Shown here: positions 31,928 through 50,625 of the stretch, in pieces
Layout: the number at the start of each line of letters is the position of its first letter
How positions within the stretch are numbered: the stretch's first letter is position 1
Source: a virus
Length of the DNA stretch: 64,000 nucleotides
Virus record (IMG/VR): IMGVR_UViG_3300020186_000001
Coordinates: 32,001-96,000 of that record
Direction: 5' to 3' (one strand)
Program-made: the position numbers and the translations under genes
Notes under the pieces: model-generated
Told to the model about the DNA's origin: nothing
Databases searched by the model: none
Seen by the model: the letters and a program-made list of their open reading frames with translations, nothing else

Positions 31928-32545
31928 TTAGTCCCCCAGGATATCTGCCAGATCGTCATCGGCTGACTTGGACTTAGATTTTGCCTTCTCAACTGCAAGT
32001 TTTGCGGCTGCAAGTTTTGACTTAGAATCAGTCTTCGGTTCGGCTTTTGGTTTAGGAGCAACCTTTGGAGCGGCAGGAGCGGAAGCCTCAGATGGATTGA
32101 ATTGCTCTTCGACTTTAGTTTTAAATTCAGAACTTGCTCTCAATGTCAAATACTCAGTTGAAGTCTGGGATGCTAGACCTGAGAACTTTGATTCGCCGAT
32201 GGCAGTCTTCAGCTTTTCAGCACTGAAGTTGCAAGCGTTAAGAATTGTTGCAAGAGTGACGTGGCCTGATTCTACTAACTCAAGAATTTTGTCGGTATCA
32301 AACTTCCAGTTCGCCCTCGAAGTATAGATCACCGATCCTTGATCACACTTGAATCCTTTTCCCATGTCGATCTCAAAGCCATCATCGTTTTTTTCAAGGT
32401 AGGCAATGATCTCGCCCTTGTCAGCCTTGAAGAGGTCTTCATACTTTGAAGACAAGGCTTGATCGGTAAACGCTCGAATTAGAATCTCATCGAGTTTTTG
32501 AGGAACACTGTTTGAATCTTTTTTTCCGCCGCGATTGATAGTCAT
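31928..32545 (-). CDS. Hypothetical protein with K/A/P-rich tail
   Basis: 205 aa; AAGGAG RBS; downstream of promoter copy 5. Confidence 0.75.
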   Translation of the reverse strand: MTINRGGKKDSNSVPQKLDEILIRAFTDQALSSKYEDLFKADKGEIIAYLEKNDDGFEIDMGKGFKCDQGSVIYTSRANWKFDTDKILELVESGHVTLATILNACNFSAEKLKTAIGESKFSGLASQTSTEYLTLRASSEFKTKVEEQFNPSEASAPAAPKVAPKPKAEPKTDSKSKLAAAKLAVEKAKSKSKSADDDLADILGD

Positions 32546-33645: not shown

Positions 33646-34674
33646 CTAGAACACCGGATCTTTGGCTCGTGCAATAATTTCAGACAACTCTTCAGACTTG
33701 TAGGCGAAGCTTCCTGGATCTCTTTTTTCGGGGAGCTTCGCACATCTCACCTTAAAGCCGTAGCCTCTTAAAAGATCAACCGCATTCTGCATAGAGCAAG
33801 GTTTGATCAAATGCCCATCTTTGCGTCTCCTGGAATCAATCCATGCGTCTGAGTCCCAGGCCAAAATGATCTCTTTGATCTTGGCCTCTTTCAGAAATTC
33901 GCACTGCTCTGGATGAAGCTTTTTGCCATTAGTCGCCATCGCGTGTGGGCCTATTTTAGTGGCATCAATAAAGCCTTCCGCAAGCACCACGGTCTCATAG
34001 TTCTTAGCGACATCGTAGTTGTAGAGGACGCTTCTAGCTGAGACTCCCTTGGGGTTTAAGACCTTTTTGAAGTCCTTATTACCTGGATCCTCCCACGTAG
34101 CACGAGCTTGCCAGAACACAAGTCGGTTGTTCATGAAGTACGGAATTATGATGCGATCCTTGCAGAACCCAGCATCACAGGTTCCCCAATCACTTCTCGC
34201 TGCATACTTCCATGGGATTAGACGCTTCTCAAGGTAACTGTTCGGACCTTCAATCGGCATGTATCCATATGGTAACTCTACGTCTCTTAACGGATCTTCT
34301 TCGGATTCATCTGGCTTATATCTAGGCCAAGATATCGTGAGACTCATCATATCCATGGGATCGTTTAGCTTTCCCTTGAGAAATCGGATTGCTTGCTCAA
34401 GTGTCGTCTTGCAGATAGTTTGAACAAGCTTAAGAAGACTTCCACTCCACTTGCACCTGTAACAATGAAACGCAGCAGACTCGGCATTGATCCAAAGTTT
34501 CTTGTTTGTGTCGAGTGTCGGCTCACCGCGTTCATGGCACTTCGGACAGTTGATCTGGTATTCCTTGTGATCTCCAGAATCAGAAACACGCCATTCAAGC
34601 TCGCGTTCAACCAAAAACTCTTCAAGGTTGAAGTTGGGATAGAGTGTAAAAAATGAAAGAGACGCTTCCATCAT
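33646..34674 (-). CDS. dnaG: DNA primase (Zn finger + TOPRIM)
   Basis: CPKC...FHCYRC; RIIIPY; AEGFIDA; AWDSD; DPG. Confidence 0.9.
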   Translation of the reverse strand: MMEASLSFFTLYPNFNLEEFLVERELEWRVSDSGDHKEYQINCPKCHERGEPTLDTNKKLWINAESAAFHCYRCKWSGSLLKLVQTICKTTLEQAIRFLKGKLNDPMDMMSLTISWPRYKPDESEEDPLRDVELPYGYMPIEGPNSYLEKRLIPWKYAARSDWGTCDAGFCKDRIIIPYFMNNRLVFWQARATWEDPGNKDFKKVLNPKGVSARSVLYNYDVAKNYETVVLAEGFIDATKIGPHAMATNGKKLHPEQCEFLKEAKIKEIILAWDSDAWIDSRRRKDGHLIKPCSMQNAVDLLRGYGFKVRCAKLPEKRDPGSFAYKSEELSEIIARAKDPVF

Positions 34675-36056
34675 GTCATTTTCTTCTTTCCTCTTCGGCC
34701 TTCTTTCATCCAGTCAAACTTAGTGTCAATCGTTGGATCTGCGTGACCGTAAACCTTGGAGTAAAATATCATCTTTTCAAAGTTGGTTAGCAGATGGATT
34801 GTTTTCTCAGTGTCATTGCTTCGGTAAATATCAACATGAAGCCTAAGCACTCCGTCTTTTTTCTCTTCTAGCGTTTGATTCAAAGTCATCACAAGATCTG
34901 CGATCCGCACCTTCTCATAACTTTCAGCAATATCTTTGGACCTGAGAACTTCGCCCTTCTCCTTGGTGTCCTTTGGCCTAGTAGCCTGAGAGGCGGTCCA
35001 AATTGCAAACTTCTGCATAACCGCAAGCCTTTTAAGGTCTCGGTAAACTTCAGCTTGATCGTGTCGCAGCTCTTTTAACTTTTGACCTGATTTTAAAAGA
35101 TCTGCATAGTCAATGACAACGAGATCCGGCTTCCTGCCAGCGTTTATAAGCTCTTTAAGCTTCGCTTCGATATCAAGAACTGTGTAATTCCAATGTTGAT
35201 TGAACGGAATAAGATCCAGCTTTCTCATGTATTTCTTTGAAACAGCGTCAAGAAGCTTGCTTTCCTCTAGCGTGATCTCATCTTTCTCAAGCCTGTGATA
35301 TTCAATTCCAGAGATGCGAGAAAGATAACGCAAAATCGCTTGCTCCTTGGTCCCTTCAAGAACAAAGTGAGCGACCCTCCCCATCCTCATCATCACGGCT
35401 GTAGCACCCATGTGCGTGAGGCAAATTGATTTACCTCGCTTTGGCTCTGCTAAGACAATACCAAGCTCTCCCTTCTCTAGGCCACCGCGTAGGATGTCAT
35501 CCAGCGGCCCAATGTTGGTCGGCACTCTCCTAGTGCCTTTCGACATTTCGTTAATCATGAACTGACGTTCTTCTTCAAACTTCTCAATTGGAATAATTGC
35601 GTCATCTGTGTAGTTGATCGAATAAAGATCGTTAATGCCAAGCATCGTGTAAGTGTAGGCATCGTCATATTGCAAAGAATTCCAAAGAGTCTGAGAAGTC
35701 TGAAACACATCAATGAAAGCATTCTTCTTTGAATACTCGGTCAACTTCTCTTTGATGAACTTCTCGTTATCTGGCTTCGATCCGCAAATACGCCGACAGA
35801 AGTGTTTGAGCATCTTTCTTTTGCGAGGCTCAATGGTCTTCAAGTGATCTTCAATCTCAATATAAGAAGTCAGCTCAGCCTTGGCCTCAAGCTTCTCTTT
35901 GATCCGGTTGAAAAGATATTTATGAGGCTCTGCGTAAAGCCTCTCTTCTGGAATGTATTTACAAACCTTTGCAGCAAACGAAGCGTCTCTCAACATCAAA
36001 GAAAGCATTTGACATTGAAACTCTTCACCAAAATGAAACTCCATCGCAGCTTTCAT
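34671..36056 (-). CDS. dnaB: Replicative helicase (DnaB/SF4)
   Basis: LDDILRGGL..GEL...AEPKRGKS, VIDYADLL, WTASQ, IAESYEKVRIADLV. Confidence 0.92.
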   Translation of the reverse strand: MKAAMEFHFGEEFQCQMLSLMLRDASFAAKVCKYIPEERLYAEPHKYLFNRIKEKLEAKAELTSYIEIEDHLKTIEPRKRKMLKHFCRRICGSKPDNEKFIKEKLTEYSKKNAFIDVFQTSQTLWNSLQYDDAYTYTMLGINDLYSINYTDDAIIPIEKFEEERQFMINEMSKGTRRVPTNIGPLDDILRGGLEKGELGIVLAEPKRGKSICLTHMGATAVMMRMGRVAHFVLEGTKEQAILRYLSRISGIEYHRLEKDEITLEESKLLDAVSKKYMRKLDLIPFNQHWNYTVLDIEAKLKELINAGRKPDLVVIDYADLLKSGQKLKELRHDQAEVYRDLKRLAVMQKFAIWTASQATRPKDTKEKGEVLRSKDIAESYEKVRIADLVMTLNQTLEEKKDGVLRLHVDIYRSNDTEKTIHLLTNFEKMIFYSKVYGHADPTIDTKFDWMKEGRRGKKKMT

Positions 36057-36574
36057 AATTCAGCCTGTCTTGCGTGCTCTCTTCTCTCAACATCAGAATG
36101 AACCTGAGATATAAACTGATCGTAAAGCTCTTCACCGTAAAGCGTGATCGTATTAAAGCTAGGTCTAAAGCTTCTTCTTTGAAAACCTTTGTGGATGCAA
36201 GCTATCATCATGTGCATATTATATTCGTTTTCTTCCATGTATTGAATTGCCCCCTCAATGACAGTGAGTTGACCTTTGGTTTTTACTTTGATTGGAGATA
36301 GGTCAAAATAGAACTCACGCCATTTATTCCAGCACTCAAGAAAGCCTCTAACAGAACGAAGCCTCTCATCGTGTTCGATAAGACTTTCGACTTTTGTTTC
36401 TACCTTTTTGTTTTTCTTAGCTACCGGCTTAATTAGTATGTTCTGAACAACAATCTTTTTTGCTAAGCATGAAAATCTGCTAGCCAGTTCTCTTGCAGCT
36501 TTTTCTGCGTCAAATGAATTTCCAGGCTCTCTCCGAGTGATTTCGATTTGCATAAGATGGATTGGTGTAGACAA
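36053..36574 (-). CDS. Hypothetical replication-module protein
   Basis: 173 aa between sigma and DnaB, coupled to DnaB. Confidence 0.6.
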   Translation of the reverse strand: MSTPIHLMQIEITRREPGNSFDAEKAARELASRFSCLAKKIVVQNILIKPVAKKNKKVETKVESLIEHDERLRSVRGFLECWNKWREFYFDLSPIKVKTKGQLTVIEGAIQYMEENEYNMHMMIACIHKGFQRRSFRPSFNTITLYGEELYDQFISQVHSDVERREHARQAEL

Positions 36575-37005
36575 TTTGCTTCCCTCTCTCTAAACATTTT
36601 CAATCTAATAATTTCACGAATGGAATAGCCCTCAACGTAAATATGCTGGTAAAGCCGATACTCTTTCTCGTTCAACAAAGTCTTCATGGTGAGATCAAAA
36701 TCAACTCCCTCTTGATATGTGCCTGCCAGTTCTGGGAGTTCGCTCACATAATCAAGAGACGGCTTTGAACGCTCGTAATCGCCGATATCCATGAGATGAT
36801 TGTTGACACAGGCGTATACCCAAGTTTTTATCTTCGTGTTCTTTTTTGCGTCATACTTCCTAACAGCAATCTCTGCCGCGAGCCTCGCCTCTTGCAACAG
36901 ATCATCGAATGTATTGTTTACTTGTGACGAAAAGTTCGTTTGCTTTCGCCGAAACTTATGCACCAGATAACAAAGAAGTTCATTCAGCTCGGTTGCTTCC
37001 ATCAC
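36463..37005 (-). CDS. Phage sigma70-family sigma factor (compact)
   Basis: Region 2 FDDLLQEA...AVRKYD...KIKTWVYACVNN; region 4 LNEKEYRL...EGYSIREI. Confidence 0.85.
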   Translation of the reverse strand: MMEATELNELLCYLVHKFRRKQTNFSSQVNNTFDDLLQEARLAAEIAVRKYDAKKNTKIKTWVYACVNNHLMDIGDYERSKPSLDYVSELPELAGTYQEGVDFDLTMKTLLNEKEYRLYQHIYVEGYSIREIIRLKMFREREANCLHQSILCKSKSLGESLEIHLTQKKLQENWLADFHA

Positions 37006-37197: not shown

Positions 37198-38061
37198 CTA
37201 CTCTAGGATGGTAATTCTGAACGCAGATTCTTTGCGGTATGATTTAAGTCTTTCCAAGCTATGATCACGAAGATGTCTTTGCCCTTCGATCATAAAATCA
37301 TAAACTTCGGCTTTATCTTTGCCTTCATGTTTACGTAGTGTCCTACCGATGCCCTGCGATGTTTGAATCTCAGTCTTTTGACAACGGGCATTAATAAGAA
37401 CATCAATTGTTGGAATATCTATACCTTCGCCAAAGATGTTAGTAGCGACAAGACATTTAAACCTTTTTTTAATAAACTCTGATTTAACACGCTCTCTATG
37501 ATCGGTCGGATCGTCACCGCTTAAATATTCAGCATCATTACCAATCAGTCGCACAATGGCTCTACCATGCTCTTTGCGTCGAACTAGAATGAGTGTTTGC
37601 TTGCCCTCGGTGTATGCCTTGCTAATCGCGAGTCTGGCGATCTTAAGATTAAAACTTTCATCCTTGGTGATATACTCGTAAGCTCTCGCATAGCTACACT
37701 TCAAATTCGGCACAGTGTGTTTGATCATGGTTATATACGGCCTAACTAAATACCCCTCTTCAATCAGCTCACTTGTGGATTTCTTGAAGATTACCTGTGA
37801 AAGAACACCGTACATCTCCATATCAGATCCATCGGATCTCATGAAAGTCCCAGTGAACCCGTAGCGGTAGTAGGCACTGCGGCAATATGCGTTCACAGTT
37901 TTGTAGGTTTTCGCTGCGGAATTTGACACTAATATGCCATTAGCAACAAAGTTGTGATTGCCTTCAACCTCTAGGTCGTAGACGTCAAAATCTCCACAAA
38001 CTTCTTCAATCGAGACAATCCGTCCTTTGAGCAATTTTCCGGTATCCTGACAATTTTCCAT
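37198..38061 (-). CDS. Split-intein C fragment (47 aa) + C-terminal half of DExH helicase
   Basis: TAAGGAGG 5 nt before ATG; VYDLEVEGNHNFVANGILVSN/S intein end; GFTGT, FGEGIDIP, QGIGRTLR helicase motifs. Confidence 0.9.
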   Translation of the reverse strand: MENCQDTGKLLKGRIVSIEEVCGDFDVYDLEVEGNHNFVANGILVSNSAAKTYKTVNAYCRSAYYRYGFTGTFMRSDGSDMEMYGVLSQVIFKKSTSELIEEGYLVRPYITMIKHTVPNLKCSYARAYEYITKDESFNLKIARLAISKAYTEGKQTLILVRRKEHGRAIVRLIGNDAEYLSGDDPTDHRERVKSEFIKKRFKCLVATNIFGEGIDIPTIDVLINARCQKTEIQTSQGIGRTLRKHEGKDKAEVYDFMIEGQRHLRDHSLERLKSYRKESAFRITILE

Positions 38062-38771
38062 CCCAGCCTCCTTAGCCTTTCGCTCTTTCTTCGATCTGAT
38101 TCTTCGCGACCTTTATGAGAGCTTCCATCAACTTCGATGGCGATCATGTGGCGTGGGATGGCCACATCGATCTTGTAATGATGTGGCCTCTCCTTGTCTC
38201 TCAGGGCCACTGAAAGCTCTGAGATGCTTTCTGGCAGCATCTTGGAGATACGATCCTGCGTCGGCGTGGTCCTGCCTCCGTTACCGTATTTGCCGCGACC
38301 GTAAGGGTTGTAGCTGCCATCGTCAATCAGCTTTTTAATCTTTTTGGATTGTCGTTTTCGAACTTCTAAAGAGCGATTTCTGTTTTGATCTCCAGCACGT
38401 CTGGAGAGATACTCTCTGTACTCCGTATTCAAACTTCTCTTCCGCATAGCCGCAGCATGAGTGCTGTATCCAAGAACCACCTCATCACCAACCTTCATCG
38501 AACCTATTTCAACTTTGCCATGCTCGGTGAGCATCTTATGCTTGCGAGTAATAAGAAGTTCTTTAATCTTCCCATCTTCATCTTGAATTTTAACCTTTAA
38601 AAGATCAGAAGATTTGTATTTGAAAGCGTTAGTAACAAGCCTGTTCTCCCATTCAGTCCCATTCCAAGATTTGACTTTTGTTTGAAATCCAGACACAACC
38701 CTATTGTAAATCCACTCAATTGACCTGTATGCGCCATATCCTGCTGAAATCATTGTGTTTTTGGCGAGGCA
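37921..38771 (-). mobile_element. Split intein with homing-type endonuclease in helicase motif II
   Basis: Cys1 codon at 38771-38769; terminal Asn codon at 37923-37921 followed by Ser; two overlapping frames. Confidence 0.85.
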
Positions 38772-39383
38772 GTGATGAAATTCGTCAATTACAAGCATAT
38801 TGAAGCGGTGAAACATCGAAGGAGGCTTGTTTGCAAGAGATTGAATATTGGCGATCACAATAGAGGCGTCAGAGTCAACGCTGGTTGAGAGATGTTTCTC
38901 TTCGAACCACTCAGCATACGAGTCATACATCTGCTGCCTGAGATTAGTGTCAGGCGTTACAACAAGGGTTTGAACGCCATGTTTGGCCACCATCATAGCA
39001 CTGGTTAAAGTTTTACCACCACCTGTGCCAATAACGAGCACACCCCTTGAACGTCCCGTCTCAACTGCGGCCACTTGATAATCTCTCGGTGAGAAGGGCA
39101 GATTCAGCTTATAAGCGATTTTGTTCTTTGGGATAGACCTGACATCCACAAACCGATAAGCGAGGCTCTGTTGCTTTAAAAACTTCACCAGGATGGCAAG
39201 GAGTCCGGTCGGAAAGATCCCCTTCTTGTCCATGAGGTAAATGCGACCATCGCAATAGGGGTTTGCCTGTCTTGCGAAGAAGGCACCTGCCATCTCGTAG
39301 GAAAGAACCCTTGAAAGTTTGTTGATTACTTTTTCATCAGCCACTACTTGAGAGTGAGCATTGTCAATCTTGATGTCAATCAC
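37971..39383 (-). CDS. N-terminal half of UvsW/XPB-like DExH helicase + intein N fragment + DUF559/Vsr-like endonuclease
   Basis: PRDYQ, GTGGGKT, IDEFHH/CLAKNT intein start, ITRKHKM block B, KIDVA...IAIEVDGSSH...D..K...L..LGWKIVRI. Confidence 0.9.
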   Translation of the reverse strand: MIDIKIDNAHSQVVADEKVINKLSRVLSYEMAGAFFARQANPYCDGRIYLMDKKGIFPTGLLAILVKFLKQQSLAYRFVDVRSIPKNKIAYKLNLPFSPRDYQVAAVETGRSRGVLVIGTGGGKTLTSAMMVAKHGVQTLVVTPDTNLRQQMYDSYAEWFEEKHLSTSVDSDASIVIANIQSLANKPPSMFHRFNMLVIDEFHHCLAKNTMISAGYGAYRSIEWIYNRVVSGFQTKVKSWNGTEWENRLVTNAFKYKSSDLLKVKIQDEDGKIKELLITRKHKMLTEHGKVEIGSMKVGDEVVLGYSTHAAAMRKRSLNTEYREYLSRRAGDQNRNRSLEVRKRQSKKIKKLIDDGSYNPYGRGKYGNGGRTTPTQDRISKMLPESISELSVALRDKERPHHYKIDVAIPRHMIAIEVDGSSHKGREESDRRKSERLRRLGWKIVRIPENCSKDGLSRLKKFVEILTSTT

Positions 39384-46100: not shown

Positions 46101-46351
46101 GCGAACTCGGATTTGATTGGAATACGAAAAAGATTAAGAGTGTAAAGCTTGTAAACGGTCAGCAGACTGTTGTTGAACTTAGTCCAAAAGAGATCATAAA
46201 TGATCCAAATCGGCATCGCGTAGAGTCCATTATTCACGCTCTTTGTATTTCCATAAATCAGTTGATCGAGGCTCAAGAACTTCAAGCTGCAAGAATCCAG
46301 TCAATGCTATCTCAAAGAGAGTCTCCAAAAGAGAGCCAAGTTGAGCAATGA
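46097..46351 (+). CDS. Hypothetical protein
   Basis: 84 aa; coupled on both sides. Confidence 0.65.
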   Translation: MSELGFDWNTKKIKSVKLVNGQQTVVELSPKEIINDPNRHRVESIIHALCISINQLIEAQELQAARIQSMLSQRESPKESQVEQ

Positions 46352-49300
46352 GTTTCGTAAATCTCCATGCACACTCCGAGGCTTCAATAGCTGATGGTTT
46401 ATTCCATCCAAAGAAGTGGGTTGAGGCTTTAAAGCAACGTGGCTTTGTAGGTCATGCGATGACGGATCACGGGAGCATGGCATCTCTTCTTGCGTTTTAC
46501 AAACTCATGAAGGCTGAGAAGATGATTCCGATCCTTGGGGTTGAGTTTTATTTTGTCCCAGATCCTTCAGAGAGAACTGCGGATAACCGCAAAAACTCTC
46601 ACTTAATACTTCTTGCCAAGGACTACGAGGGATTCCGCAATCTTTGTCGGCTATCAAAGCTTAGTTACACTGAGGGCTACTACTACAAGCCAAGGATTGG
46701 CTACGAGTGGCTGGCCAAGTATAGCGAAGGGCTAATCTGTCTAACAGCGTGTCAGGGCGGGGTTCTCTCCAACGAGGTATGGTCTGAGCTAAAGGGCAGG
46801 AAGCACGATCTTGTCGGCACCTTCCATAAGCTCAAAGCAATCTTCAACGATGATCTCTACGTTGAATTCCAGGGACACAACACGATCTCCAAGAACGATG
46901 ATGGGGAGCTTTTCAATTCGCAGGCACTTATCAATCTTTCCTTTTACGAGACGCTTAGAAATGAGATTGGGTTTAAGCAGATTGTGACCAACGATTGTCA
47001 CTACATTCTTCCAGAACACGCTCAGATCCAGCAGACTCTTAAGAACATTTCTTGGGGCAGTGCGGCTGGCGGAGCGAGTGATAGTGCGACTGTGACAAAA
47101 GATCACTTCACCGATTCGCTGTGGCTGAAGAGTGCGGTGCAGGTTTACTCTTCTTTTAGAGAGCATCATGAGTATCTTCCAAAACAGTTCGTGGCTGATG
47201 GAATGAGAAGAACGACTGAGGTTTTAGAGAAGTGTAAAGACTTTGAAATGCCAAAAGACAAGAGGTATCTTCCACAGTTTCGTTCTGTTGGTGGAGCTAC
47301 TTCGAGCGAGTTGTTTAAGAGGATTTGTTTCAAAAAGCTTGATGATTTTCTTAAATCAGATCTTATGAGAACCGACAAAGAAACATACATTCAGCGATTC
47401 AAAAAAGAATACAAAGTAATCACCAAATACCATCTTGAGGACTACTTTTTAATCGTTTGGGATGTCGTCAGGTTCGCCAAGAGAAGCGGCATCGTCACAG
47501 GGCTAGGTAGGGGGTGCCTTCATCCTGACGTGAACGTCTTAACAGCCGATGGATTTAAGGCGATTTCGAAGATTGAAACCGATGATTTGGTTGTGAACAG
47601 AGGCGGTGAGTTTAAAAGAGTAGAGGCTGTTCACAAGTACAAACATAAGGGGAGGATGATACGCGTCAAAAGCAGATTCGGTCTTACATCCGGCAACGCT
47701 TTCACGCCTGATCATAAAATTCTGGCAATTGAGACAAAAAAGAATAGCAACGACACTTATATAGATATTTCAGAACCAAAATGGATCAGGGCTGATGAGG
47801 TTAGGCGAGGGCATCGCGTCTTCACGCCAAACCTTGAGAGTCGAATGGACAACAAAGAGTTGTCAGACGACATTTTGTGGCTCCTTGGATATTGGGCGGG
47901 GGACGGCTGGCTTTGCGAGCATAAGAGAGTGGTACGCAGTAATGGATGGAGAAGTTCTACCGGATTCCGTCTTGGCTTTGCTTTTAATAATACTTCTAAG
48001 AAAGACTTCCTTGATAAGGCACGCGGCATCCTTGAGTCTCTTGGTTTGAATCCGAGAGTTTGCAGATCGAAGAAGAAGAATTTGGTTCAAGTGAACGTGA
48101 ATGACAAGACGTTTTACAATAGGATTTCTAGTTACTTTCCAGATTACGAGATTTCTAGTCAGACGAAAACTTTGCCGATATTTTTTAGAGAATTGAGCGA
48201 GAGACAGGCGAAAATACTTCTTTCCGGTTTAATAGATTCTGACGGGAGTGTTAGGGGTAAAACGACCATCTGCACAACCTCTCCTCGACTTGCTTATGAG
48301 ACTAAAGAGCTATGTTTGATGTCTGGGATTCTTTCTTCAATCCGCCATGAGAGCAAGAGAATTGATAAAAGGGGTTACAATCCGAGTGCCGCATATTATT
48401 TGATACTTGACAAGGCAGAGTCATCAACAGTCAAAAAAGACAAAAATGGTTCATGGTCTTTGGTCATTGACACAGAGACGGAAGACTATGAGGGGGATGT
48501 CTACGATCTATCCGTTTCTGGCAAAGAGCATAATTTTTTAACTGACAGCTTCCTTGTTCACAATTCAGCAGCAGGGTGCTTCATAAGTTATTTGTTGGAT
48601 ATCGTAAAAATTGATCCACTTGAGCACAAGCTTATCTTTGAGCGGTTTCTCAATGAGAATCGCTGTGAGACTGGCGAGCTTCCTGATATCGATCTCGATT
48701 TCGAGTCAGATCGAAGAAGAGAGATCAAAGACTACATTTATAAAACGTATGGCCATGACCGTGTGTGCGAGATTGGAACGTATGGGCGAATGAAGCTCAA
48801 GACGGCTCTCATAGACTTTGCAAAGAGCATGGGTGTTGCGACACAGCGAGAGATTCACGCTATCACAACCAATCTTGATCTTGACAAGGAGGACGTGGAC
48901 GATCTCGTTGCGGCGTCTGAATCCGATCCGAGGCTCAAGATGCTTCTTGCTAATGAGAAGTTTGGGTTTGCGGTCAGTGAGATCATAGGCCAAGTCAAAA
49001 GCCAGGGAGTGCATCCGGCTGGTGTGATCATATGTTCCGAACCAATCGCAGAGATTACTCCAATCAAGACTCAGAAGAAGAACTTTAAGCCAGGGGAAAT
49101 ACCAGAAGGTGTTAAGAAGAAGGATGCGGAGCAGCGTGTCATAACGACTCAATCAGAGGATAAATACATCATCGCCCAGGGCATGATGAAAGCTGACATT
49201 CTAGGGGTCAAAGAATACGATGTGATTCGATATGTGATTGAGAACATTGATAGCGATCTCACCATTGATAATTACGTTCATGTGATTATGCAAAAAGAAC

Positions 49301-50625
49301 GCGATAAGCCAAACAAGGTTGTTTGGAAGATGTTTCAGGAGGGCAGGACGGAGGGTGTGTTTCAGTTTTCAAGTGACGGCATGAGGGCACTTCTAGTGAT
49401 GATGCGTCCAACTCACATCGGAGATTTGACGGCTGCGAATGCTCTTTACCGTCCAGGTTGTCTTGAAAACGGCTGGCACATTCAATACTGCAAAAGGAAA
49501 CACGGAGAAGAGGAAGTCCTGTTTGTGCATCCGAGTGTTGAAGAAGCATTGGGCGATACATTTGGCGTGATTGTTTTCCAGGAGCAGTTCATGGAGGTGA
49601 TCCACAAGTTGGGAGATGTCTCTCTTGTGGATGCAGATACAATTCGTTCTGCTTTGGGAAAGAAAGACAAAGACAAGCTCAACAAGTTTAAAGAAGAGTT
49701 CGTGGTTGGTGCTTCAAAACGTATAGGGAAACTTGATGCGATAATGCTTTGGGATCAGATTGAGAAGGCTTCAGGCTATTCGTTTAATAGATCTCACAGT
49801 GCGGCATATGCTGTGCTCGCATATATCTCTCAGTATCTGAAAACCTATTATCCGGCTCATTTCTGGGCGGCAAGGCTGGACTGGGATGTAAGGAAGAACG
49901 ATCTCGATGAGATGTTGGTTAATCGACGTGCGGCATCTGACATGGGCATTGAGTTCATTTTACCTCATGTGAATCGCTCCAGGGAGCGTTTCTATGTGGA
50001 TGGATCAGAGGTTGTGTGGTCTTTCCTTAGCGTCAAGGGTGTTGGACCAAAGGCGGCTAAAGCCATTGTTGAGAGCCAACCGTATGCGAATTTCGATGAC
50101 TTCTATGCGAGAGTAAATAAGAAGGCTGTTAAGAAGAACAATATTGAATTTCTCATATTTGGAGGAGCCTTTGATGAGTTTGGAGATAGAAGAGATCTCC
50201 TCCGGTGCCTTGAATCTAAGAAGAAAAGTAAGAAGGGATATGTTTCAAAGCCAGAAAAAGAATTGATGAGAGCCTTCTATGACTCCATGGGATTCTTTGA
50301 GCTTAAGATTAAAAAGGTAATGCCAGTTTTCTCTAAGTATTGCATCACGGAGAAAGAACTCCATGAATACACTGGCGGTGAATACGTTGTTGTAGGTGGA
50401 ATGATCACAGCGGTCAGATCCATCAAGACAAAGCGTGATGAGCATATGGGCTTTGTAACACTGATGGACTTGGATGAAATAATTGAAGTGACGATATTTC
50501 CGAAAGTGTGGGCAAAAGAACGAGAGATCCTTCGGATTGACAATATCGTTCAGATTTCTGGCAACAAGTCTACATACAATAATAAGAACAATCATATCGA
50601 AGCTCATAAAATAGAGTTGATGTAA
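46348..50625 (+). CDS. dnaE: DNA polymerase III alpha subunit, intein-containing
   Basis: PHP motifs (LHAHS, TDHG, TNDCHY), GRG/SAAG, PDIDLDF, HPAGV, YSFNRSH, C-terminal OB fold. Confidence 0.97.
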   Translation: MSFVNLHAHSEASIADGLFHPKKWVEALKQRGFVGHAMTDHGSMASLLAFYKLMKAEKMIPILGVEFYFVPDPSERTADNRKNSHLILLAKDYEGFRNLCRLSKLSYTEGYYYKPRIGYEWLAKYSEGLICLTACQGGVLSNEVWSELKGRKHDLVGTFHKLKAIFNDDLYVEFQGHNTISKNDDGELFNSQALINLSFYETLRNEIGFKQIVTNDCHYILPEHAQIQQTLKNISWGSAAGGASDSATVTKDHFTDSLWLKSAVQVYSSFREHHEYLPKQFVADGMRRTTEVLEKCKDFEMPKDKRYLPQFRSVGGATSSELFKRICFKKLDDFLKSDLMRTDKETYIQRFKKEYKVITKYHLEDYFLIVWDVVRFAKRSGIVTGLGRGCLHPDVNVLTADGFKAISKIETDDLVVNRGGEFKRVEAVHKYKHKGRMIRVKSRFGLTSGNAFTPDHKILAIETKKNSNDTYIDISEPKWIRADEVRRGHRVFTPNLESRMDNKELSDDILWLLGYWAGDGWLCEHKRVVRSNGWRSSTGFRLGFAFNNTSKKDFLDKARGILESLGLNPRVCRSKKKNLVQVNVNDKTFYNRISSYFPDYEISSQTKTLPIFFRELSERQAKILLSGLIDSDGSVRGKTTICTTSPRLAYETKELCLMSGILSSIRHESKRIDKRGYNPSAAYYLILDKAESSTVKKDKNGSWSLVIDTETEDYEGDVYDLSVSGKEHNFLTDSFLVHNSAAGCFISYLLDIVKIDPLEHKLIFERFLNENRCETGELPDIDLDFESDRRREIKDYIYKTYGHDRVCEIGTYGRMKLKTALIDFAKSMGVATQREIHAITTNLDLDKEDVDDLVAASESDPRLKMLLANEKFGFAVSEIIGQVKSQGVHPAGVIICSEPIAEITPIKTQKKNFKPGEIPEGVKKKDAEQRVITTQSEDKYIIAQGMMKADILGVKEYDVIRYVIENIDSDLTIDNYVHVIMQKERDKPNKVVWKMFQEGRTEGVFQFSSDGMRALLVMMRPTHIGDLTAANALYRPGCLENGWHIQYCKRKHGEEEVLFVHPSVEEALGDTFGVIVFQEQFMEVIHKLGDVSLVDADTIRSALGKKDKDKLNKFKEEFVVGASKRIGKLDAIMLWDQIEKASGYSFNRSHSAAYAVLAYISQYLKTYYPAHFWAARLDWDVRKNDLDEMLVNRRAASDMGIEFILPHVNRSRERFYVDGSEVVWSFLSVKGVGPKAAKAIVESQPYANFDDFYARVNKKAVKKNNIEFLIFGGAFDEFGDRRDLLRCLESKKKSKKGYVSKPEKELMRAFYDSMGFFELKIKKVMPVFSKYCITEKELHEYTGGEYVVVGGMITAVRSIKTKRDEHMGFVTLMDLDEIIEVTIFPKVWAKEREILRIDNIVQISGNKSTYNNKNNHIEAHKIELM
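47515..48564 (+). mobile_element. Contiguous intein (350 aa) with LAGLIDADG endonuclease
   Basis: GRG/CLHPDV...FTPDHKI...LLGYWAGDG...LSGLIDSDG...FLVHN/SAAG. Confidence 0.95.

Follow-up and report, generated by a model that had tools for sequence, protein, structure and literature searches.

A putative naturally split intein in a phage UvsW-like helicase, with a nuclease fused to its N-terminal half and an overprinted C-terminal half

Identification of the candidate split intein

We analysed a stretch of 64,000 nucleotides (the window; positions 32,001 to 96,000) of the viral record IMGVR_UViG_3300020186_000001, a 108,329-bp IMG/VR genome that exhibits direct terminal repeats (DTR) and is estimated to be complete. 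Two overlapping open reading frames (ORFs) on the minus strand of the window encode the two halves of a UvsW-like helicase, which is present as a single copy in the whole 108-kb genome. This locus very probably harbors a naturally split intein in motif II of the only UvsW-like helicase of the phage, with a nuclease fused to the N-terminal intein half (IntN) and a separately initiated C-terminal half (IntC) overprinted on the end of the nuclease coding sequence. Such an architecture had been proposed from the letters of the window without database searches (hereafter the sequence-only reading), and it is now supported by a conserved start codon and Shine-Dalgarno (SD) sequence, the lack of a conserved slippery site, invariant splicing and nuclease residues and a predicted complex of the two intein halves.

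The first ORF (ORF1; 39383..37971, minus strand as are all features of the locus given below; 470 aa, GTG start) runs without a stop from the helicase N-half through IntN and a basic helical region into a DUF559/Vsr-like nuclease. The N-extein (ExtN; 38772..39383, residues 1-204) is the N-half of a UvsW-like superfamily 2 (SF2) helicase with matches to Pfam UvsW_N (29.3 bits against a cut-off of 25.3), ResIII and DEAD; Helicase_C also matches the helicase, and the helicase profile matches the T4 UvsW structures (PDB 1rif and 2oca) at an E-value of 5e-20. ExtN ends in motif II (IDEFHH) and is directly followed by Cys1 of the intein (C205, codon 38771..38769). As the sequence-only reading had noticed, the DExH motif is cut at IDEFHH|C, and C205 opens a region (residues 205-286) covered by the intein N-terminal profile TIGR01445 (E-value = 6e-4), with a score (20.7 bits) under its cut-off of 24.5. 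IntN (38457..38771, residues 205-309) contains the block B residues T279-x-x-H282; C205, T279 and H282 are invariant in 8 sequences. The next segment (38229..38456, residues 310-385) is a basic three-helix region with 20 K/R versus 8 D/E, the helices lying at residues 105-150 of the model described below. The nuclease core, putatively of the EDxHD type (37974..38228, residues 386-470), exhibits a Pfam DUF559 match at residues 401-448 (28.7 bits against a cut-off of 20.6) and a match to REase_MTES_1575 at residues 387-448 whose 32.8 bits are under the cut-off of 38.2. Its residues D406, E417, D419, H423, D430 and G441-W442 are invariant, and free-standing nucleases align to the intein-nuclease profile from about position 104 on. 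ORF1 terminates with a TAG codon (37973..37971) that falls within the codons of IntC block F.

The missing end of the intein is the first 47 aa of the second ORF (ORF2; 38061..37198, 287 aa), which lies in the -1 frame relative to ORF1 and overlaps it by 91 nt (37971..38061), as had been noticed. In the overlap, frame 0 encodes the C-terminal strand and helix of the nuclease and frame -1 the IntC residues 1-30. The ATG codon of ORF2 (38061..38059) is formed by the nuclease Gly-Trp codons (GGA TGG), and a Shine-Dalgarno sequence, TAAGGAGG (38067..38074), lies within the nuclease Leu-Arg-Arg codons with a 5-nt spacer to the ATG; both are exactly where the sequence-only reading had placed them. 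IntC (37921..38061, ORF2 residues 1-47) contains blocks F and G and ends with GILVSN (Asn47, codon 37923..37921). The intein C-terminal profile TIGR01443 matches ORF2 residues 26-48 with an E-value of 8.7e-11 (41.7 bits against a cut-off of 15.6). The C-extein (ExtC; 37198..37920, ORF2 residues 48-287 and stop) starts with Ser+1 (S48, SAAKTY...) and encodes the helicase C-half (Pfam Helicase_C, E-value = 2e-16). N47 and Ser+1 are invariant in the 8 sequences of the IntC alignment. By its Cys1, terminal Asn and Ser+1 residues, the intein is of class 1. A recount agrees with the earlier figures for the charge of IntC (9 D/E versus 3 K/R) and the length of the spliced helicase (444 aa); IntN contains 17 K/R versus 12 D/E.

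ORF2 has been overlooked in part by automatic gene calling. In the source contig and its near-copies (P0281, P0279, P0280) the calls start at a later Met and give 214 or 207 aa; the source contig's own call is of 214 aa, in which IntC is dropped entirely. Such truncated gene calls hide split inteins of this kind in standard annotation.

In the mechanism that we propose, the intein would be broken at the C-terminal boundary of the nested homing endonuclease, and not on both sides. ORF1 would yield ExtN, IntN and the endonuclease as one polypeptide, and ORF2, initiated from an SD and an ATG of its own within the final 91 nt that encode the nuclease, would yield IntC-ExtC. IntN and IntC would associate and trans-splice, giving the 444-aa helicase with DEFHH-SAAK restored. 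The second product would be a non-covalent complex of the IntN-nuclease with IntC, equivalent to a nicked bifunctional intein. The Vsr-like nuclease presumably cuts intein-less helicase alleles in co-infecting phages, by which the whole unit would spread, carrying the start signals required by the downstream half-gene.

The penultimate residue of IntC is Ser and not His, as might be the case if the halves no longer spliced and either made a non-covalent two-subunit helicase held together by the intein pieces, in the manner of the fractured Aeh1 NrdA, or were a decaying pseudogene; the same ...SN ending, however, is also found in highly active DnaE split inteins. For the assembly of a fractured gene product in the absence of splicing there is a precedent (PMC3045599). 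On the other hand, Cys1, the block B Thr and His, the terminal Asn and Ser+1 are all invariant across 40-60% divergence, Pfam domains are kept in both helicase halves, the codon pattern is that of purifying selection, and this is the only copy of the helicase in the genome. We therefore regard a loss of splicing as improbable.

Conservation of the layout in homologous loci

Homologs were searched with the intein and nuclease part against 5.8 billion proteins, and an exhaustive profile search was run against 1.84 billion representatives. The former revealed 7 other clusters (453-496 aa), 48-61% identical over the intein and nuclease, which exhibit the helicase N-half, IntN and the nuclease in one frame and a common end; the latter revealed 6 clusters of the ExtN-IntN-nuclease fusion. 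DNA was available for 6 homologous loci from other samples (L005, L006, L007, L021, L022 and L024), whose intein and nuclease are 44-63% identical. In all 6, IntC-ExtC lies in the -1 frame of ORF1, and ORF2 starts in the equivalent Gly-Trp codons, with ATG in 5 loci and GTG in L024. A purine-rich SD is found 5-7 nt upstream in 6/6 loci (GGAGG, GGGAGG, AGGAAG, TGGAG, and a weaker AGGAAA in L007). The overlap measures 91-94 nt in all 7 loci, including the window. The ORF1 stop falls within the block F VYD[IL] codons, and the -1 frame is closed by in-frame stops just before the ORF2 start in every locus. The start codon, SD and frame offset picked out by the sequence-only reading are thus kept in every further locus.

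The window is part of a metagenome-assembled viral contig, and the frame offset is taken from assembled contigs, which is a point against the split reading: an assembly or sequencing indel might have broken a contiguous intein-containing gene. Yet the 6 independent contigs, from other samples and as divergent as stated above, exhibit the same two ORFs, frame offset and overlap, and none of these homologous loci is in one continuous frame, the contiguous relatives being found in other helicases. The 470-aa ORF1 product also recurs in a separate Logan assembly (18.5-kb contig), where it differs from that of the JGI 108-kb contig only in the writing of the GTG start. A simple indel would not leave 30 codons conserved in both frames. 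In addition, contiguous relatives have the nuclease tail helix and IntC end to end (about 70 aa from GW to HN) and not superimposed. The recurrence of the layout in 6 further loci greatly exceeds what chance would give. It therefore excludes an assembly error for practical purposes, and we give this explanation next to no probability.

The element was not recovered at the nucleotide level, a megablast search of the region against 50,697 phage records giving no match. The tblastn search against phages returned distant UvsW helicases only; the best-ranked one, from Prochlorococcus phage MED4-213, was the sole one to extend past motif II (to residue 283).

Dual coding and initiation of ORF2

Both frames had been suspected to be coding in the overlap. 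Across the 7 loci, the mean pairwise identities at ORF1 codon positions 1, 2 and 3 are 0.60, 0.72 and 0.36 in the nuclease core, and 0.80, 0.65 and 0.71 in the overlap, where the third position of ORF1 is the first position of ORF2. The wobble constraint is confined to the overlap and is the signature of dual coding. The low third-position identity (0.36) against that at the second position (0.72) in the nuclease core indicates that the ORF1 protein is under purifying selection.

The -1 frame of IntC, open for 17 codons before the ATG, might instead be reached by a programmed -1 ribosomal frameshift or by transcriptional slippage in the overlap. A single cis-splicing precursor (ExtN-IntN-nuclease-IntC-ExtC) would then be made and the ORF2 ATG would be incidental; contiguous in-frame relatives of this intein type do occur in other helicases. 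Nevertheless, the final 150 nt of ORF1 contain no slippery heptamer (X_XXY_YYZ), either in the window or in 5/6 homologs, the lone match in L021 is not shared, and the longest A run is of 4 nt. The start codon in the Gly-Trp codons (including its GTG variant) and the purine-rich SD are found in 7/7 loci, and the -1 frame is stopped shortly upstream in every one. We consider the frameshift very improbable. Since both start signals, the codon and the SD, persist in every locus while no heptamer is conserved, independent initiation of ORF2 at its own SD and ATG (38061) is favoured by the sequences. An internal start giving a free nuclease was also considered and rejected, as no internal Met at the junction is conserved.

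Predicted structures

The AlphaFold2 model of ORF1 residues 205-470 (mean pLDDT 83.4) exhibits a half of the HINT fold, three helices and an alpha/beta nuclease. The best Foldseek match of the HINT half is the N-fragment of Npu DnaE (4lx3_A, TM-target 0.59). The nuclease matches I-Bth0305I (3r3p_A; probability 0.99, TM-target 0.58, E-value = 0.018), and also Vsr (1cw0 and 1vsr).

A complex was predicted for IntN (112 aa) and IntC (55 aa) with an ipSAE of 0.73, the best control reaching 0.01; this mark is reached by 58/80 solved complexes and 2/110 mismatched pairs. At least 89% of the contacts are common to the runs, with a partner pLDDT of 71 or more. According to this prediction, the HINT fold is formed jointly by IntN and IntC. 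Split-intein complexes have already been solved, so the score may reflect a likeness to those complexes and not binding.

Target alleles and apparent mobility

Searching with ORF2 yielded 93 helicases without the interruption (about 445-460 aa, with identities of up to 71%) and 7 IntC-ExtC clusters. The commonest motif II junction among the uninterrupted alleles is IDEFHHSAAKT, which equals the predicted spliced sequence and agrees with the junction DEFHHSAAK put forward by the sequence-only reading.

We placed 14 split alleles on an ExtC tree of 91 sequences obtained by a quick IQ-TREE search. They require 12 state changes, and shuffled labels 13.2 on average; for most of the split alleles the nearest, strongly supported neighbour is an uninterrupted allele. 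The distribution is patchy, and on this tree the element is gained or lost faster than the helicase diverges. Furthermore, L006 and L007 share 44-52% identity with the other loci over the intein and nuclease, and only 24-30% over ExtC. With an intein more conserved than its host gene and alleles so scattered, the element therefore appears to move horizontally; it appears to have passed between deep lineages of the helicase without any change of layout, as an active homing element would.

One allele, P0277, is 99% identical to ORF1 and lacks residues 319-432 in frame (corresponding to 38088..38429 of the window), that is nearly the whole nuclease, at the protein level. The SD, the ATG and the overlap are all spared, since the missing segment ends 13 nt upstream of the SD. 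As far as the predicted protein goes, this allele fits a homing cycle with loss of the nuclease after fixation, and reveals the portion of the nuclease gene that is indispensable to the host.

The same allele might be taken to mean that the fused nuclease is an inert remnant that does no homing, retained only for the ORF2 start signals and the first 30 IntC codons in its 3' end, its core being dispensable. Such an inert state seems unlikely to us: over 8-12 sequences, D406, E417, D419, H423 and D430 and the entire basic region are invariant or conserved, and the codons vary as expected of a selected protein. The split alleles are as scattered on the extein tree as random labels, and between deep lineages the element has diverged far less than its host gene, as expected of active homing.

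Several points weigh against the reading of the locus as an active split homing element. Splicing, initiation at 38061 and cleavage by the nuclease are what we infer, not what we observe. A patchy distribution alone cannot tell gains from precise losses, and here it was read from a quickly searched tree. For the P0277 deletion, the sole source is a predicted protein, encoded on a Logan contig of 2.4 kb. As for the nuclease, a sequence search against the PDB gave no meaningful match to any solved structure, its fold match to 3r3p is only moderate (E-value = 0.018), and neither NUMOD nor helix-turn-helix (HTH) DNA-binding motifs were detected in ORF1 by Pfam.

A more speculative extension concerns the reason for the half-fused layout. 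The nuclease gene contains the ribosome binding site, the start codon and the first 30 IntC codons of ORF2, and its product is joined to IntN; the helicase therefore could not be made without sequence of the element. We tentatively suggest, as a possibility that we ourselves hold doubtful, that the layout is a selected "hostage" design and not a passing intermediate. The helicase would need the element's sequence, the nuclease would be made 1:1 with the helicase precursor, DNA targeting would perhaps occur only after IntN/IntC assembly, and the whole would move between very different helicase lineages as a self-sufficient cassette. If this were true, the related forms at the same site would together make up an extant record of how split inteins arise and decay.

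Genomic context and related layouts

The split helicase locus sits in a replication module. ORF2 is followed, on its own strand, by genes for a sigma-70 region 2 protein (36463..37005), for a protein without any Pfam family (36053..36574) and for a DnaB-like helicase (34671..36056). A promoter and terminator scan gave nothing exceeding the shuffled expectation.

On the plus strand, the window also encodes (46348..50625) a 1425-aa DnaE (DNA polymerase III alpha) with a contiguous intein at about residues 422-739 that contains a LAGLIDADG endonuclease. Two more matches to intein splicing domains are found outside the window in the same genome (G000:C1:6751-7986 and C1:17778-18041), within ORFs of 1037 and 547 aa. 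This phage is intein-rich, and carries a classic as well as a split intein.

Relatives at the same or equivalent motif II sites exhibit contiguous in-frame, contiguous with a +1-frame nuclease, half-fused, three-ORF and nuclease-deleted forms. The sequence-only reading had seen in the window a possible route by which inteins become split. Contiguous in-frame, out-of-frame, half-fused and three-ORF relatives do exist, but no direction can be assigned among them. In every out-of-frame form the frame offset from the nuclease to IntC is -1.

Four contiguous helicase-intein ORFs (L009:2704-5355, L028:885-2774, L030:403-3249 and L026:753-2573) have a DUF559/Vsr-like nuclease wholly in the +1 frame over the intein linker. 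Their intein frames, 226-313 codons long, contain no stop where 6.4-9.5 would be expected; of 5000 synonymous-codon shuffles, no more than 0.04% lack a stop. A 2025 survey of actinophages described cases of out-of-frame EndoVII-like and antisense VSR-like endonucleases, but not this sense-strand +1-frame form (bioRxiv 10.1101/2025.01.02.630785).

Contiguous inteins (P0080, P0092, P0058, P0069, P0097, P0104 and others; 765-1472 aa) with an in-frame Vsr-like nuclease (...GW..., about 70 aa, ...HN|C) are found in DE|C helicases. The same survey states that Vsr-like endonucleases are reported only with split inteins.

Four further proteins (P0028, P0072, P0045 and P0090), which are other helicases with different inteins, exhibit the order ExtN-IntN-nuclease, the fused Vsr-like nuclease forming their C-terminal end. 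Going by these sequences, the half-fused split layout probably recurs in other host genes. Scans of viral contigs yielded no DNA for the P0028, P0072 and P0090 fusions, where their IntC partners would be sought.

Two other loci differ in their details. In L008, at the same helicase site, IntN is fused to a different Cys-rich nuclease-like region with an 8-nt overlap, and IntC opens with MAKILKIERI. L025 (504-2195) exhibits a second contiguous intein in Walker A (GTG|C...HN|SGKT) besides the motif II intein, inside which the contig ends.

Comparison with known systems

The closest described systems are the 26 fractured loci of Dassa et al. 2009 (PMC2677866), in which IntN ends with a stop and is followed by a 27-51 nt spacer and then by a free-standing gene for an endonuclease, either GIY-YIG or Vsr-like. 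The 3' end of the endonuclease overlaps the IntC start by 6-69 bp in 15 loci, and the authors argue that the invading endonuclease supplies the initiator codon for the downstream half. The window resembles these loci in many respects. Both concern genes of phage DNA metabolism whose halves share a strand and a locus, with the endonuclease between IntN and IntC; in both, the intein is split, with a Vsr-like endonuclease at the canonical insertion point whose 3' end overlaps and starts IntC. The overprinting of the IntC start, together with an SD of its own, is thus already known, and in this part the architecture is less unusual than the sequence-only reading had supposed. In contrast with the fractured genes, the window exhibits no stop after IntN, no 27-51 nt spacer or hairpin and no separate endonuclease start. 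It consists of two ORFs instead of three, lacking the free-standing endonuclease gene that the sequence-only reading had correctly named for fractured phage genes, and its overlap (91-94 nt in the 7 loci) is longer than their 6-69 bp.

What differs in the window is thus the in-frame fusion of the endonuclease to IntN. We did not find a natural split intein with such a fusion in the literature, including the 2025 survey; few subscription journals were covered, and this is not a proof of absence. To this extent the claim of an unusual architecture stands. The state seen in the window corresponds to half of the hypothetical step IIIa of Dassa et al. (loss of the endonuclease flanks), a state which they did not report.

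Three-ORF relatives in IMG/VR (L002, L003 and L004, in a DEHHR|C helicase) contain a homologous DUF559 nuclease with 35-38% identity. In L002 and L004, IntC also starts in the -1 frame inside the 3' end of the nuclease, with an overlap of 121 nt. These loci differ from the window in that the IntN ORF stops and the nuclease (253 aa, with Cys-rich N-terminal motifs) is a gene of its own in the +1 frame; the host helicase is another one, and the +1 residue is Cys.

I-Bth0305I (Taylor et al. 2011, PMC3239194; PDB 3R3P), the prototype of the EDxHD homing endonucleases, resembles the modelled window nuclease in its Vsr-like catalytic fold and, like it, is associated with a mobile intervening sequence; the conserved acidic and His residues of the window nuclease are putative counterparts of its catalytic residues. 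I-Bth0305I differs in being intron-encoded and free-standing, with NUMOD-type N-terminal motifs, and has no sequence-level match to the window nuclease. The out-of-frame and antisense endonuclease inteins of Gosselin, Arsenault and Gogarten (bioRxiv 10.1101/2025.01.02.630785) find their likeness in the allelic L009 and L028, with their +1-frame Vsr-like nuclease. Those inteins are contiguous and cis-splicing, whereas the window intein is very likely split, and its nuclease is in frame with IntN.

Canonical contiguous bifunctional inteins (P0080, P0092, P0058 and others) exhibit the same IntN-nuclease-IntC order, nuclease family and motif II position as the window, and the excised product of the window would equal the same assembly with one backbone nick. 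They differ in being single ORFs, in which the tail helix is followed by IntC, whereas the window superimposes the two in two frames and gives IntC its own start. Protein ligation relies mainly on natural split inteins, whose origin from contiguous inteins is still argued from few genomic snapshots. A one-sided break beside the homing endonuclease is implied, though not reported, by the gene-breaking model of 2009. With a conserved and apparently mobile layout, relatives in every other state and a deletion allele, the order of events becomes testable, and the family offers candidate split inteins with Cys1, Ser+1 and an IntC of 47 aa.

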